Made by a program: the position numbers and the translations under genes. From the IMG/VR virus record IMGVR_UViG_2711768074_000001: 4,468 nt of DNA, one strand, 5' to 3'. The stretch's first letter is position 1. The number at the start of each line of letters is the position of its first letter. Of the stretch, positions 1 through 4,263 are shown piece after piece. The DNA is from a virus (taxonomy: Duplodnaviria; Heunggongvirae; Uroviricota; Caudoviricetes). The notes beneath the pieces were generated by a model. It was not told the origin of the DNA. It saw nothing but the letters and a program-made list of their open reading frames with translations, and did no database searches.

Positions 1-1
1 C

Positions 2-115
2 GGCGTGTTTCCCAACCAGGACGGCACGTTTACCGCGATGACGTATACCAGAAGCAAAACGTTTAAAACCGAAAATGGTGCCCGTCGCTGGCTGGAAAGA
101 AACTCAGGTGAGTGA
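2..115 (+). CDS. 3' end of an upstream gene (5'-partial, start lies left of the window); hypothetical protein ending ...VFPNQDGTFTAMTYTRSKTFKTENGARRWLERNSGE
   Basis: Frame open from the window edge to TGA at 113-115 with protein-like composition. The other two + frames stop at 39-41 and 64-66. The next ORF starts 1 bp downstream with its SD inside this 3' end, a typical operon arrangement. Confidence 0.4.
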   Translation, partial: GVFPNQDGTFTAMTYTRSKTFKTENGARRWLERNSGE

Positions 116-116
116 T

Positions 117-245
117 ATGGATTTCGACACAATCATGGAAAAGGCTTACGAAGAATACTTCGAAGGCCTTGCCGAAGGCGAAGAAGCTCTCAGCTTCAGT
201 GAGTTTAAACAGGCGCTTTCCAGCTCGGCAAAATCTAACGGCTGA
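117..245 (+). CDS. Small, highly acidic hypothetical protein (42 aa; MDFDTIMEKAYEEYFEGLAEGEEALSFSEFKQALSSSAKSNG)
   Basis: ATG at 117 preceded by SD AGGTGA (106-111) with a 5-nt spacer; stop TGA at 243-245. 10 acidic against 3 basic residues; enterobacterial-looking codon usage. Below the length cutoff of the supplied ORF track. An alternative in-frame ATG at 75 lacks an SD. Confidence 0.5.
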   Translation: MDFDTIMEKAYEEYFEGLAEGEEALSFSEFKQALSSSAKSNG

Positions 246-274
246 TAAGCGAAGCAGCACCGCGAGGAATCAGT

Positions 275-493
275 ATGCAGAAACGAGAACCCGTCATCAT
301 CTCGCCAGACTATACCGATGATGAACTTTATGAGTGGATGCGCCAGAAAATTAATGCAGCGCAGGATCTGAAATGGGCCAATGAAGCCAGGGCTAAGCAG
401 GCTGAAAATCTGTCCGCTCTGGAGCAGGATATCACCAGGCTGGAAAAAGCAGCGGCATTAAGCATTGCCAGAATGATTACATACCCGCGTTAA
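275..493 (+). CDS. Hypothetical small phage protein (72 aa) with a predicted helical/coiled-coil C-terminal half
   Basis: ATG at 275 with SD GAGGA (264-268) and a 6-nt spacer; tandem stops TAA-TAG at 491-496. Protein-like composition (DYTDDELYEWMRQKINAAQDLKWANEARAKQAENLSALEQDITRLEKAA). Function not recognised. Confidence 0.7.
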   Translation: MQKREPVIISPDYTDDELYEWMRQKINAAQDLKWANEARAKQAENLSALEQDITRLEKAAALSIARMITYPR

Positions 494-771
494 TAGCTAA
501 CCAACGAAGCTAAGGTTGGTAATTAAGGAGTTCTCCACGGGTGAGGTGGAGTGCGTGCGCCGGACATGGGTGAGCATCCGGCACTGACAGTTTACTGAAA
601 GGATATTTCCATGAAAAGTCAGACCATAACGCGAAAGCGCACGGCGAGGTAGCTGGTTCATAGATAGCCTGTCGTTAAATTTTCGTCGACCGTGCGCTTC
701 CGGTTGTGGCACTCCGCGAAATGGCGCGGCGGTAAGTATGGCGGGGTTATTCCTTCCCCGTTGAGGACACC

Positions 772-808
772 GGGTTGTCAGGTTGACCATACGCTTAAGC
801 GACAACCC
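772..808. repeat. 8-bp inverted repeat GGGTTGTC-N21-GACAACCC within the ORF-poor region; the loop contains the palindrome GCTTAAGC (793-800)
   Basis: 772-779 is the exact reverse complement of 801-808. The strongest of several potential hairpins in 494-1060. Confidence 0.4.
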
Positions 809-984
809 CGCTGCAACGCCCTCTGTTATCAATTTTCTGGTGACGTTTGGCGGTATCAGTTTTACTCCGTGACTGCTCTGCCGCCGTTTTTAAAGTGAAT
901 TTTGTGATGCGGTGAATGCGGCTGAGCGCACGCGGAACAGTTAAAACCAAAAACAGTGTTATGGGTGGATTCTCTGTATCCGGC

Positions 985-1029
985 GTTAATTGTTAACTGG
1001 TTAACGTCACCTGGAGGCACCAGGCACCA
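985..1029. promoter_or_regulatory. Candidate operator/regulatory block: three closely spaced GTTAAY hexamers (GTTAAT 985-990, GTTAAC 992-997, GTTAAC 1000-1005) followed by tandem heptamer GGCACCA x2 (1016-1029), about 30-75 bp upstream of ATG 1061
   Basis: Direct reading. GTTAAC is itself palindromic and 992-1005 forms a near-palindromic 14-mer. No convincing -35/-10 pair was found, so the regulatory role is inferred from repeat structure and position only. Confidence 0.3.
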
Positions 1030-1060
1030 CATCACAAAATTCATTGTTGAGGACGCGATA

Positions 1061-1529: not shown

Positions 1530-4001
1530 ATGAGTAAAGTCTTTATTTGCGCTGCTATTCCTGATGAACAGGCCATAAAAGAAGATAGCGCTGTTGCGGT
1601 GGCCACTGCCATTGAAGCTGGTGATGAGCGTCGCGCACGCGCAAAATTTCATTGGCAATTTCTGGAGCAATTCCCTGCAGCTCAGGACTGCGCTTATAAA
1701 TTTATTGTCTGTGAGGATAAACCCGGCATACCCCGCCCTGCCCTCGATTCCTGGGATGCTGAATATATGCAGGAAAACCGCTGGGATGAGGAGTCTGCTT
1801 CCTTTGTCCCGGTTGAGACTGAATCCGATCCGATGAACGTCACTTTTGACAAGCTGGCCCCTGAAGTACAGAACGCTGTCATGGTTAAGTTCGACACATG
1901 TGAAAACATCACCGTTGATATGGTTATTAGCGCACAGGAATTGTTGCAGGAAGACATGGCAACATTCGACGGACATATCGTTGAAGCGTTGATGAAAATG
2001 CCAGAAGTTAACGCCATGTATCCGGAGCTTAAGCTGCATGCCATCGGGTGGGTTAAGCATAAATGTAAGCCTGGTGCCAAATGGCCCGAAATTCAGGCAG
2101 AGATGCGCATCTGGAAAAAACGTCGCGAAGGTGAACGCAAGGAAACCGGAAAATACACGTCTGTTGTTGATCTCGCCCGCGCCAGAGTCAATCAACAGCA
2201 CACTGAAAATTCAACAGGAAAAATCAGCCTGGTCATTGCTGCCATTCATCGCGAATACAAGCAGACATGGAAAACACTGGATGACGAACTGGCCTACGCT
2301 CTCTGGCCTGGTGATGTGGATGCCGGAAACATTGACGGCAGCATCCATCGCTGGGCAAAAAATGAAGTTATCGACAACGACCGCGAAGACTGGAAGCGTA
2401 TCTCGACATCAATGCGCAAACAGCCTGATGCCCTTCGCTACGACCGCCAGACTATTTTTGGCCTTGTCCGTGAACGTCCGATCGACATTCACAAAGATCC
2501 CGTAGCACTGAACAAATATATCTGCGAATACCTGACGACAAAGGGCGTGTTTGAGAATGAAGAAACAGACCTGGGCACTGTTGATGTTCTCCAGTCATCA
2601 GAAACACAAACTGATGCAGTGGAAACTGAGGTATCTGATATCCCAAAAAATGAAACCGCGCCGGAAGCTGAACCATCTGTAGAGCGTGAGGGGCCGTTCT
2701 ACTTCCTCTTCACCGACAAGGATGGCGAAAAATACGGTCGCGCAAACAAACTTTCTGGTCTGGATAAGGCGCTGTCTGCTGGGGCTACTGAAATCACGAA
2801 AGAAGAATATTTCGCCCGCAAAAACGGTACATACTCAGGTTCACAACAAAATACTGGTGCATCTGACACGACCGCACAACCAGGGCCGGTAAAAGTTACC
2901 GCTGACGAAGTAAACAAAATTATGCAGGCAGCCAATATCAGCCAGCCTGACGCCGATAAGTTACTTGCTGTATCGCGTGGTGAATTTGTTGAGGGGATTA
3001 GCGCCCCTAATGATCCGAAATGGGTCAAGGGGATCCAGACTCGCGATTCTGTGAACCAGAACCAGCATGAATCGGAACGGAACTACCAAAAAGCGGAACA
3101 AAACAGCCCAAATGCGTTACAAAACGAGCCAGAAACGAAACAACCTGAACCAGTAGTGCAACAGGAACCGGAAAAGATCTGCACCGCCTGCGGTCAGAGC
3201 GGTGGCGGCAACTGCCCTGATTGTGGTGCGGTGATGGGTGACGCAACATACCAGGAAATATTCGATGGAGAGAATCAGCCTGAAGTTCAGGAAAATGATC
3301 CGGAGGAAATGGAAGGCACTGCGCATCAGCACAAGGAGAACACTGGCGGCAATCAGCATCATGCCAGCGATAGTGAAACTGGCGAGGCGTCAGATCCCTT
3401 AATTAAGGCGAACGGTCATCATAATCTCACATCCACCAGCAGAGCGGGGATTCATCTGATGATCGACCTTGAAACCATGGGAAAAAATCCCGATGCCCCG
3501 ATTATCTCAATAGGTGCAATATTTTTCGATCCGCAAACCGGAGATATGGGACCGGAATTTAGTAAGACTATCGATCTGGAAACTGCTGGCGGAGTCATTG
3601 ATCGGGACACCATTAAATGGTGGCTTAAACAATCACGCGAAGCGCAATCTGCCATTATGGCCGATGAAATCCCGTTAGATGATGCACTGTTACAATTGCG
3701 GGAATTTATCGACGAAAACTCCGGTGAATTTTTTGTTCATGTCTGGGGAAATGGAGCCAACTTCGACAACACGATTTTGCGCCGTTCATACGAACGGCAG
3801 GGGATCCCCTGCCCGTGGCGTTACTACAACGATCGCGATGTACGCACAATCGTTGAGCTGGGGAAAGCCATAGACTTCGATGCCAGAACGGCTATTCCAT
3901 TCGAAGGTGAGCGCCATAATGCACTTGATGACGCCCGTTACCAGGCAAAATACGTTTCAGCTATCTGGCAAAAACTGATCCCGAGTCAGGCTGATTTTTA
4001 A
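1530..4001 (+). CDS. Large prophage exonuclease (823 aa): long N-terminal region of unknown function, Q/E-rich linkers, Cys4 zinc-ribbon-like motif, and C-terminal DEDDh (DnaQ-like) 3'-5' exonuclease domain; possibly of the family annotated as exodeoxyribonuclease VIII (RecE)-like in enterobacterial prophages
   Basis: Single 2.47 kb ORF with SD TGAGG (1516-1520) 9 nt before ATG 1530. The C-terminal ~180 aa carry the three DEDDh motifs in canonical order: D646-x-E648 (MIDLETMG), D746 (GNGANFD), H796-x4-D801 (HNALDDARY). CxxC-x7-CxxC at residues 551-565. The central stretch ADKLLAVSRGEFVEGISAPNDPKWVKGIQTRD resembles what I recall of the non-catalytic part of Rac RecE (unverified). All antisense and alternative-frame ORFs inside it are treated as spurious. 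Confidence 0.9.
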   Translation: MSKVFICAAIPDEQAIKEDSAVAVATAIEAGDERRARAKFHWQFLEQFPAAQDCAYKFIVCEDKPGIPRPALDSWDAEYMQENRWDEESASFVPVETESDPMNVTFDKLAPEVQNAVMVKFDTCENITVDMVISAQELLQEDMATFDGHIVEALMKMPEVNAMYPELKLHAIGWVKHKCKPGAKWPEIQAEMRIWKKRREGERKETGKYTSVVDLARARVNQQHTENSTGKISLVIAAIHREYKQTWKTLDDELAYALWPGDVDAGNIDGSIHRWAKNEVIDNDREDWKRISTSMRKQPDALRYDRQTIFGLVRERPIDIHKDPVALNKYICEYLTTKGVFENEETDLGTVDVLQSSETQTDAVETEVSDIPKNETAPEAEPSVEREGPFYFLFTDKDGEKYGRANKLSGLDKALSAGATEITKEEYFARKNGTYSGSQQNTGASDTTAQPGPVKVTADEVNKIMQAANISQPDADKLLAVSRGEFVEGISAPNDPKWVKGIQTRDSVNQNQHESERNYQKAEQNSPNALQNEPETKQPEPVVQQEPEKICTACGQSGGGNCPDCGAVMGDATYQEIFDGENQPEVQENDPEEMEGTAHQHKENTGGNQHHASDSETGEASDPLIKANGHHNLTSTSRAGIHLMIDLETMGKNPDAPIISIGAIFFDPQTGDMGPEFSKTIDLETAGGVIDRDTIKWWLKQSREAQSAIMADEIPLDDALLQLREFIDENSGEFFVHVWGNGANFDNTILRRSYERQGIPCPWRYYNDRDVRTIVELGKAIDFDARTAIPFEGERHNALDDARYQAKYVSAIWQKLIPSQADF
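3447..4001 (+). other. DEDDh 3'-5' exonuclease domain (C-terminal domain of the 823-aa protein)
   Basis: Exo I DLET (codons at 3465-3473), Exo II NGANFD (3750-3767), Exo III HNALDD (3915-3932), spaced as in DnaQ-like exonucleases. Domain boundaries are approximate. Confidence 0.75.
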
Positions 4002-4059: not shown

Positions 4060-4263
4060 ATGAGCAGCTTATTTTTAACCGAAGATGAATTGCTAATATT
4101 AACGGGCTGCAAATATGCAAGCCACCAGCGAAAATGGTTAATGGAAAACGGGCTTCCGTTCTATACCAATCGTAGTGGCAAACCGATTGTCAGCCGGGAG
4201 CTATTTACCTGCAATAAAACTTTACCACCACGCGAGGTAGAGCCGAATTTTGGTGCGATCTGA
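4060..4263 (+). CDS. DUF4224-like small protein (67 aa), excisionase-like by position directly upstream of the integrase
   Basis: N-terminus MSSLFLTEDELLILTG...WLMENGLPF...GKPIVSRELF fits the pattern I recall for DUF4224 proteins found next to prophage integrases. The stop TGA (4261-4263) overlaps the integrase ATG (4263-4265). The SD is weak. Confidence 0.7.
   Translation: MSSLFLTEDELLILTGCKYASHQRKWLMENGLPFYTNRSGKPIVSRELFTCNKTLPPREVEPNFGAI

Follow-up and report, generated by a model that had tools for sequence, protein, structure and literature searches.

The closest described counterpart of the locus examined here is the dicB (dicBF) operon of the Qin prophage of Escherichia coli K-12, in which ydfB lies between ydfA and ydfC, upstream of dicF and dicB. 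The operon is repressed by DicA, and its promoter is located upstream of ydfA (PMC5069750, PMC10448788); ydfA-containing transcripts from this DicA-controlled promoter are detectable in stationary phase (PMC10448788). A 2024 reassessment of the y-ome placed ydfB among the uncharacterized Qin genes. A second counterpart is gp2 of the virulent Salmonella phage SP6, together with its homologues in K1E and in Zindervirus and Vectrevirus phages. Further points of comparison are T7 Ocr, T7 gp5.9, lambda Gam, and phi29 p56, which, like YdfB, are small, acidic, and early. The stretch analyzed here, hereafter the window, comprises 4468 bases of the IMG/VR virus record IMGVR_UViG_2711768074_000001 and represents the early-left (PL-like) operon of a Qin-like, lambdoid E. 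coli prophage, with the operon promoter lying outside it. Its open reading frame (ORF) at 117–245 on the + strand is ydfB, the second gene of the DicA-repressed operon and an already known gene, and the product is a cytoplasmic, selectively maintained microprotein. We put the probability at roughly 55% that YdfB is an immediate-early, host-directed stoichiometric binder serving host takeover or counter-defense.

The gene starts with the ATG at 117–119 and ends with the TGA at 243–245, and its product of 42 amino acids (aa) reads MDFDTIMEKAYEEYFEGLAEGEEALSFSEFKQALSSSAKSNG. The Shine–Dalgarno (SD) sequence AGGTGA occupies 106–111 on the + strand, 5 nucleotides (nt) before the ATG, and the ydfA stop codon at 113–115 ends one base ahead of the ATG, an arrangement for translational coupling. 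The description of the ORF in the sequence-only reading, made from the letters of the window, was borne out: 42 aa, an AGGTGA SD, and 10 Asp/Glu residues against 3 Lys/Arg residues. The isoelectric point (pI) is approximately 4.05, and the net charge is about −7 over the 42 aa. The sequence-only reading had also called the ORF unannotated, which holds for its own ORF track alone; publicly, the ORF is ydfB, present in thousands of E. coli genomes and in the dicB-operon literature. In a strain 100% identical over window positions 1–520, it corresponds to the RefSeq coding sequence "protein YdfB" at identical coordinates (6117–6245 of that locus; WP_000344964.1), and the same accession is carried by an MG1655 derivative. 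PHROG 2061 matched YdfB with an E-value of 1.3e-27, covering residues 1–42. Moreover, window positions 1–520 had matches in 3857 of 5426 complete E. coli genomes, with at least 80% of the stretch covered in 2311 of them, and the annotation beneath those matches named ydfA as "DUF1391 family protein," ydfB as "protein YdfB," and ydfC as "protein YdfC."

In accession, length, and place between ydfA and ydfC, the ORF is the same gene as ydfB of K-12 Qin. The two prophages differ farther downstream. The exonuclease of K-12 Qin is truncated to the pseudogene ydfE, which is cut by IS2, whereas the exonuclease here has its full 823 aa. The prophage here is more complete than K-12 Qin, and its integrase gene is interrupted at approximately 4377 by another multi-copy element, not by IS2. 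The gene call itself adds nothing new, ydfB being standard E. coli annotation. What emerged from the analysis is a 29-residue minimal core, a position just after the repressor gene or approximately 1 kb from the left genome end, and a connection to SP6 gp2 that PHROG 2061 already implies.

Because the window contains 62 ORFs of at least 20 aa, the length of ydfB is by itself uninformative, and it is conservation that makes the gene real. Divergent copies were taken from Cronobacter phage phiES15, Salmonella phage SW-37, and prophages of enterobacterial hosts, namely, Citrobacter braakii, C. werkmanii, Enterobacter mori, E. hormaechei, E. asburiae, a Klebsiella strain, Pectobacterium polonicum, and Pantoea coffeiphila. 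Selection was evaluated from Nei–Gojobori proportions of synonymous (pS) and nonsynonymous (pN) differences over the 29-codon core in 11 copies from eight genera (Escherichia, Cronobacter, Citrobacter, Salmonella, Enterobacter, Klebsiella, Pectobacterium, and Pantoea). The ratio of nonsynonymous to synonymous rates (dN/dS) within E. coli, available from 80 viral-contig loci, was left unused because those loci had been picked at 100% protein identity. In the ydfB frame, the mean pS was 0.80, which is saturated, and the mean pN was 0.13, giving a pN/pS of 0.17. Third codon positions varied in 28 of the 29 core codons and second positions in 9, and the ydfB frame was the sole one of the six to be stop-free in all 11 copies.

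The other frames behaved differently. The overlapping GTG frame at 112–321, which the sequence-only reading had named as the possible true gene, gave a pS of 0.18, a pN of 0.26, and a ratio of 1.44 and was rejected on this ratio and on stops in 6 of the 11 homologous copies. For the third + frame, the values were 0.07, 0.29, and 4.19, with stops in all 11 copies. That an alternative + frame is open in the window is explained by the GAA-rich codons, which read AAG or AAA when shifted by one base. The antisense −1 frame showed a ratio of 0.26, which is low because its third positions fall on the sense third positions, and it contained stops in 3 of the 11 copies. The third + frame and the three antisense frames were rejected on the basis of pN/pS and stops in the homologous copies. 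On this comparison, ydfB is a genuine gene under strong purifying selection in this frame, and its translation is predicted. Both the frame and the start are those chosen by the sequence-only reading, and the conservation check across prophages that it had suggested showed the frame to be conserved across the eight genera.

The evidence for the start is of three kinds. The phiES15 and Citrobacter copies carry in-frame stops 5–6 codons 5′ of the conserved ATG, the nucleotide homology with phiES15 starts precisely at window position 117, and a purine-rich, SD-like motif is found at a constant distance from the start in each divergent copy as well as in SP6 gp2. A 56-aa form starting from the ATG at 75 is included in PHROG 2061 and in numerous automatic gene calls, and 68-aa extended versions have also been called. 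The 56-aa form was rejected, as it lacks an SD, overlaps ydfA, and would be cut off in other genera by the in-frame stops just ahead of the conserved ATG.

The conserved unit of YdfB spans residues 7–35 (M7–S35), encoded by 29 codons at 135–221 on the + strand, and was defined from family alignments and short homologues as MxKAYEEYFxxLxEGEExLSFxEFxxAxS. A length of just 29 aa, with the start at the position equivalent to M7, is common among the homologues. Only the 42-aa subfamily has the N-terminal MDFDTI and the Ser/Lys-rich tail, and in recombinant copies the tail is swapped after about residue 34. Among 37 diverse members, Y14 and F15 were invariant, and Y11, L18, G21, E23, S26, and E29 were nearly invariant. 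Some acidic positions vary across the family, with E22 replaced by Ala and E20 by Pro, Tyr, or Asp in some members. AlphaFold2, supplied with the family alignment, placed a helix at residues 3–17, a loop at 18–26, and a second helix at 27–39, with a mean predicted local distance difference test (pLDDT) score of 85 and approximately 90 over the core. The modelled protein is a two-helix hairpin of approximately 35 ordered residues. Judging from the sequence, each helix is predicted to bear a conserved aromatic and hydrophobic stripe, whereas the glutamates would occupy the loop and the remaining faces. According to the model, the functional unit would be a 29-residue acidic helix-loop-helix having a hydrophobic face of Y11, Y14, F15, L18, L25, F27, and F30 and an EGEE loop.

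The extent of the family was determined by a profile search against 1.84 billion representative proteins at E-values up to 1e-3, which returned 79 matches. Those inspected were microproteins of approximately 20–100 aa, barring two repetitive proteins (P0167 and P0171) in which the match is limited to an xLSFxEF segment and is uninformative. All 10 divergent members that were tested fell in PHROG 2061, the category of which is "unknown function." No informative domain fusions were found among the family matches; long matches were rejected as fusions and attributed to upstream extensions called in error, to frameshifts joining the gene to ydfA or to the +1 frame, and to recombinant tails.

One family cluster includes SP6 gp2 (33 aa, NP_853562.1). 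Searching with SP6 gp2 by tblastn revealed copies in K1E, Vectrevirus and Zindervirus phages, Citrobacter phage CrRp3, and Providencia phages, and also in the 11.5-kb Salmonella phages astrithr, assan, and Astrid. SP6 gp2 and its homologues in K1E, Zindervirus, and Vectrevirus share with YdfB the motif YExYFxSLxEGEExLSFxxF, the microprotein size, a strong SD, and the immediate-early position. They differ from YdfB in belonging to virulent podoviruses without repressor control and in having different gene neighbors; their identity with YdfB is approximately 40–50%, and they lack the N-terminal MDFDTI and the Ser/Lys-rich tail.

Micro-genes of the YdfB type (29–42 codons) are often overlooked by annotation. 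Members of the family are missing from the deposited annotation of phiES15 (locus L003:4001-4129), SW-37 (locus L004:4001-4090), and K1E (NC_007637, 971-1051), and the SW-37 record bears no annotation at all. A 2521-bp contig (L006) with a YdfB 98% identical to that of the E. coli gene is filed as a metagenome-assembled genome of Collinsella sp. and is probably a binning contaminant.

The position of the gene is shared across the family and tells more about it than any other feature. In temperate phages, the ydfB-like gene lies shortly 3′ of the repressor gene and on the same strand. The distance from the end of the repressor gene was 178 nt in phiES15, 197 nt in Citrobacter braakii, 209 nt in Enterobacter mori, 198 nt in Enterobacter hormaechei, and 301 nt in Klebsiella, and it was 306–342 nt in three of four prophages that have S24-type CI repressors and a distant 39-aa member. 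In E. coli, one gene, ydfA, stands between the repressor side and ydfB. SP6 gp2 lies at 998–1099 of the 43.8-kb genome as the second annotated ORF from the left end, has an AGGTGA SD, and is followed in order by gp3, gp4, the "ocr-like anti-restriction" gp5, and the RNA polymerase gene. In the SP6 relatives with records starting at the genome end, the gene is found at approximately 0.9–1.0 kb. The family occupies the region expressed earliest upon induction or DNA entry and is immediate-early by position. The assignment of ydfB to an early phage region by the sequence-only reading agrees with this, as the gene is second in a repressor-controlled PL-like operon and its relatives occupy the earliest-expressed position in temperate and virulent phages.

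In some loci, an inserted two-gene cassette precedes the ydfB-like gene. The insert of SW-37 (L004:2173-3491), upstream of its YdfB-like gene, encodes proteins of 167 and 272 aa, and that of C. werkmanii (L010:974-2376), between a repressor-like helix-turn-helix gene and the YdfB-like gene, encodes proteins of 157 and 310 aa. These inserts could be lysogen-expressed cargo such as defense genes.

Downstream, ATGA stop/start overlaps with the next gene were found in SW-37, Citrobacter, Enterobacter, Pantoea, and phiES15, and SP6 also has an overlapping junction. The coupled neighbors are unrelated between loci, being YdfC, a 95-aa coiled-coil protein, a 66-aa protein, a 67–69-aa protein, or SP6 gp3. 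Upstream, ydfA is absent from phiES15, Citrobacter, and other non-E. coli loci. DicF was not found as a constant downstream neighbor outside E. coli; four prophages with a distant YdfB-like gene (L099–L102) have approximately 350–530 nt without called genes directly after it and gave no DicF match. Both phiES15 and SW-37 carry Gam in addition to the YdfB-like gene, SP6 has an Ocr-like gene as well, and the family also co-occurs with Kil or DicB.

As the motif is constant while the neighbors change and the phages differ in lifestyle, a constant external target is indicated, most likely a conserved host protein. Moreover, the near-unchanged core with saturated synonymous sites, the earliest position, and the matching of the region that carries the gene in approximately 70% of complete E. 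coli genomes suggest a general task early in infection. In the mechanism that we favor, YdfB would be produced in the first minutes after induction or infection, its translation coupled to that of its neighbors, and would act stoichiometrically, alone or as a dimer. It would bind a conserved protein partner via its aromatic face, which is flanked by acidic residues. This partner would most likely be a host protein, probably a non-essential one, and the role would be host takeover or counter-defense, not a structural or regulatory phage function. The anti-defense or host-takeover idea of the sequence-only reading is therefore retained as plausible, being compatible with the data. That the gene occurs alongside Gam, Ocr-like, and Kil/DicB genes speaks against its simply duplicating their activities.

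Two expression observations bear on the partner. When the K-12 operon was induced without dicF and dicB, with ydfA, ydfB, ydfC, and ydfD intact, growth, viability, and morphology were normal (PMC5069750). In addition, in a pooled overexpression screen under H2O2 and HOCl, ASKA ydfB clones are given among the enriched ones in the candidate list (PMC8228696). Both observations suggest that the target of YdfB is not essential. The lambda resistance conferred by the operon has been reported to be DicB-dependent (PMC6832061). No YdfB functional data were found in the literature on ydfB, on ydfA, ydfC, and dicB, on PHROG 2061, on SP6 and K1-5 early genes, and on two phage accessory-gene screens. Scans of YdfB against Pfam, NCBIfam, and PADLOC matched no family; for YdfC and the YdfA fragment, as for YdfB, PADLOC gave 0 families at E-values up to 1.

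Several points weigh against a host-directed binder. The translation of ydfB is a prediction, and the early position also fits a phage-directed role, for instance as the partner of a neighboring gene product. Moreover, ydfB is absent from one surveyed strain, ATCC 8739, and is frameshifted at loci L015:3001-3075 and L009:3001-3234 (a Shigella flexneri copy and one E. coli copy); one of these frameshifts truncates the protein after residue 19, and the other fuses it to the +1 frame and ydfC. The frameshifted copies are consistent with decay in cryptic prophages. Since some prophages lack the gene or have a frameshifted copy, prophage carriage does not require it.

A narrower form of the host-directed reading is held more tentatively, at odds clearly below even. 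In this form, the YdfB/SP6 gp2 family would be a pan-enterobacterial-phage immediate-early inhibitor of a single host factor that is conserved but not essential. The factor, a protein of defense or nucleic-acid processing other than those targeted by Ocr, Gam, and Kil/DicB, would be disabled by the 29-residue aromatic and acidic helix-loop-helix with its degenerate EF-hand-like loop. If this is true, YdfB would be among the smallest known phage counter-defense or host-takeover proteins and would be common to temperate lambdoid and virulent SP6-like phages. If the task is counter-defense or host takeover, it would be relevant to therapeutic K1 and SP6-like phages. The protein is cheap to test, as the peptide can be synthesised.

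Among the other explanations, the one that survives best, although it is unlikely, is that YdfB is an anti-restriction protein or DNA mimic in the manner of Ocr, ArdA, and T7 gp5.9. Here YdfB, perhaps as a dimer, would display carboxylates resembling the DNA backbone and block a restriction enzyme or a DNA-binding defense protein. The net charge and the immediate-early position in temperate and virulent phages alike fit this explanation, and small acidic dimeric mimics of approximately 50 aa exist, such as T7 gp5.9 and phi29 p56. However, the strongest conservation in the family falls on aromatic and hydrophobic residues (Y11, Y14, F15, and L18) together with G21, S26, E23, and E29, whereas several acidic positions, E22 and E20, vary. 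The 29-aa core is also very short, and such an activity would duplicate that of the Ocr-like gp5 in SP6 and of Gam in phiES15 and SW-37. No match to Pfam, NCBIfam, PHROG anti-restriction (Ocr/ArdA), or PADLOC families was obtained. Compared with Ocr, gp5.9, Gam, and p56, YdfB showed no detected similarity of sequence or fold, is far shorter, and belongs to a family with conservation centered on aromatic residues.

The loop of the hairpin raises a different explanation, in which L18–E29 and the helix that follows form an EF-hand-like module that binds a divalent cation or serves in pairing, so that YdfB would dimerize or dock on a partner. An EF-hand, like YdfB, is a 29-residue helix-loop-helix, and the modelled topology of helix, 9-residue loop, and helix is in line with this. 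The residues G, L, S, F, E, and F are spaced as in an EF-hand, at loop positions 4, 8, 9, 10, 12, and 13, and positions 4 (G), 8 (L or M), 9 (S), 12 (E), and 13 (F) are near-invariant. The best profile matches in the PDB were the fourth EF-hands of calcineurin B and CHP1, which were non-significant (E-values of 0.7–1.1). A comparison by hhalign with eight EF-hand sequences aligned A19–S35 onto loop positions 2–12 and the exiting helix with a P of 5.7e-4 and a probability of 30%, a P that is optimistic because the comparison was picked after the PDB matches had been seen. On the other hand, the Asp expected at position 1 is replaced by a near-invariant Leu and the Gly expected at position 6 by Glu, and position 5 is Ala in several members. 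The canonical 12-residue loop has Asp at position 1, Asp, Asn, or Ser at 3 and 5, Gly at 6, and Glu at 12; in the hhalign register, YdfB has L18 at position 1, Glu at 3 and 5, E23 at 6, and E29 at 12, and only position 12 conforms. A sub-threshold Pfam match was obtained in just 1 of the 37 members, and none was obtained for the window protein at E-values up to 10. The EF-hand likeness is a resemblance, not membership, and we regard a cation-binding or pairing module of this kind as a doubtful account of YdfB.

Equally doubtful is a role as partner or chaperone of a neighboring phage product, such as YdfA, YdfC, or others, in place of a host-directed one. The ydfA stop codon immediately ahead of the ydfB start, the ATGA junctions with the downstream gene in several loci, and the overlapping junction in SP6 speak for such a partnership. 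Against it stand the unrelatedness of the coupled neighbors across loci and the absence of ydfA outside E. coli. An obligate YdfA–YdfB complex was rejected as a general model, as ydfA is missing in most non-E. coli contexts.

Position alone invites a comparison with lambda N, which is likewise found in a PL-type early-left operon, as its first gene, just 3′ of the repressor gene. By this analogy, YdfB would be a transcription-elongation helper that binds Rho or a Nus factor so that early transcripts pass a long untranslated stretch. YdfB-like genes are the first or second ORF after a PL-like promoter in many immunity types and often precede approximately 500 nt without called genes, as at window positions 494–1060, and acidic proteins that bind the RNA site of Rho, such as YaeO/Rof, exist. 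The analogy with N is positional only. YdfB is acidic, lacks an arginine-rich RNA-binding motif, and has no sequence similarity or family match to N in Pfam or PHROG; similarity to Nun, Psu, and Rof is also lacking. Moreover, Rho is essential, yet expression of YdfB is tolerated; several loci have no long gap, the following gene overlapping the stop codon; and a DicF-like RNA is not a constant neighbor. This role is accordingly judged very unlikely. Least probable of all, and dismissed here, is a non-functional ORF (a chance ORF, a mere leader, or a wrong frame such as GTG 112–321 or the 56-aa form), since, even though ORFs of this size often arise by chance and gene callers often give 56- or 68-aa extensions, the amino acids are conserved over saturated synonymous sites in the ydfB frame and not in its rivals, and the N-terminal extensions are ended by in-frame stops in other genera.

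The remainder of the window follows the operon order ydfA-ydfB-ydfC-dicF-dicB-ydfD-exonuclease-xis-int, with all window genes on the + strand. The 3′ part of ydfA occupies 2–115, its 5′ end lying outside the window, and was identified by Pfam DUF1391 (E-value of 2.6e-20) and RefSeq annotation. Judged by eye, the C-terminal motif of YdfA, SKTFKTENGARRWLE (window 2–115), looks like a small DNA-binding domain of three strands plus a helix, of the AP2/integrase-arm type. The same look was noted by eye in 67–69-aa proteins beginning GTFSTAERA... (L014:3087-3296 and L017:166-369), which are coupled downstream of some short YdfB-like genes. Next to ydfB, 29 nt 3′ of its end, is ydfC at 275–493, encoding 72 aa (RefSeq "protein YdfC"; PHROG 1744, E-value of 7e-39).

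Between ydfC and dicB, at 494–1060, approximately 570 nt contain no convincing ORF and include the small RNA (sRNA) DicF at 835–886 (Rfam RF00039, 72.5 bits against a gathering score of 48, E-value of 3.4e-15). Immediately 3′ of DicF, a sub-threshold match to an STnc100-like sRNA (35.3 bits against a gathering score of 47) spans 884–1093 and extends into the start of dicB; at the equivalent site of the Citrobacter braakii prophage (L008:3887-4085), the STnc100 family is above threshold (49.7 bits). The cell-division inhibitor gene dicB, encoding 62 aa, lies at 1061–1249 (Pfam DicB, E-value of 1.7e-37; NCBIfam CellDivInhibDicB, 132.7 bits against a cutoff of 100) and is followed by a ydfD-like gene at 1246–1437 (DUF1482). 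The 823-aa exonuclease is encoded at 1530–4001 and has a C-terminal Rv2179c-like 3′-5′ exoribonuclease domain (E-value of 1.4e-66). An excisionase-like gene (DUF4224) lies at 4060–4263, and the integrase gene, of which only the start is present, begins at 4263. This gene is interrupted, and prophage homology in other E. coli genomes ends at approximately 4376. The final 92 or so bases of the window belong to a multi-copy element that occurs at a median of 10 places per genome and on plasmids too, and they resemble the terminal sequence of IS1.

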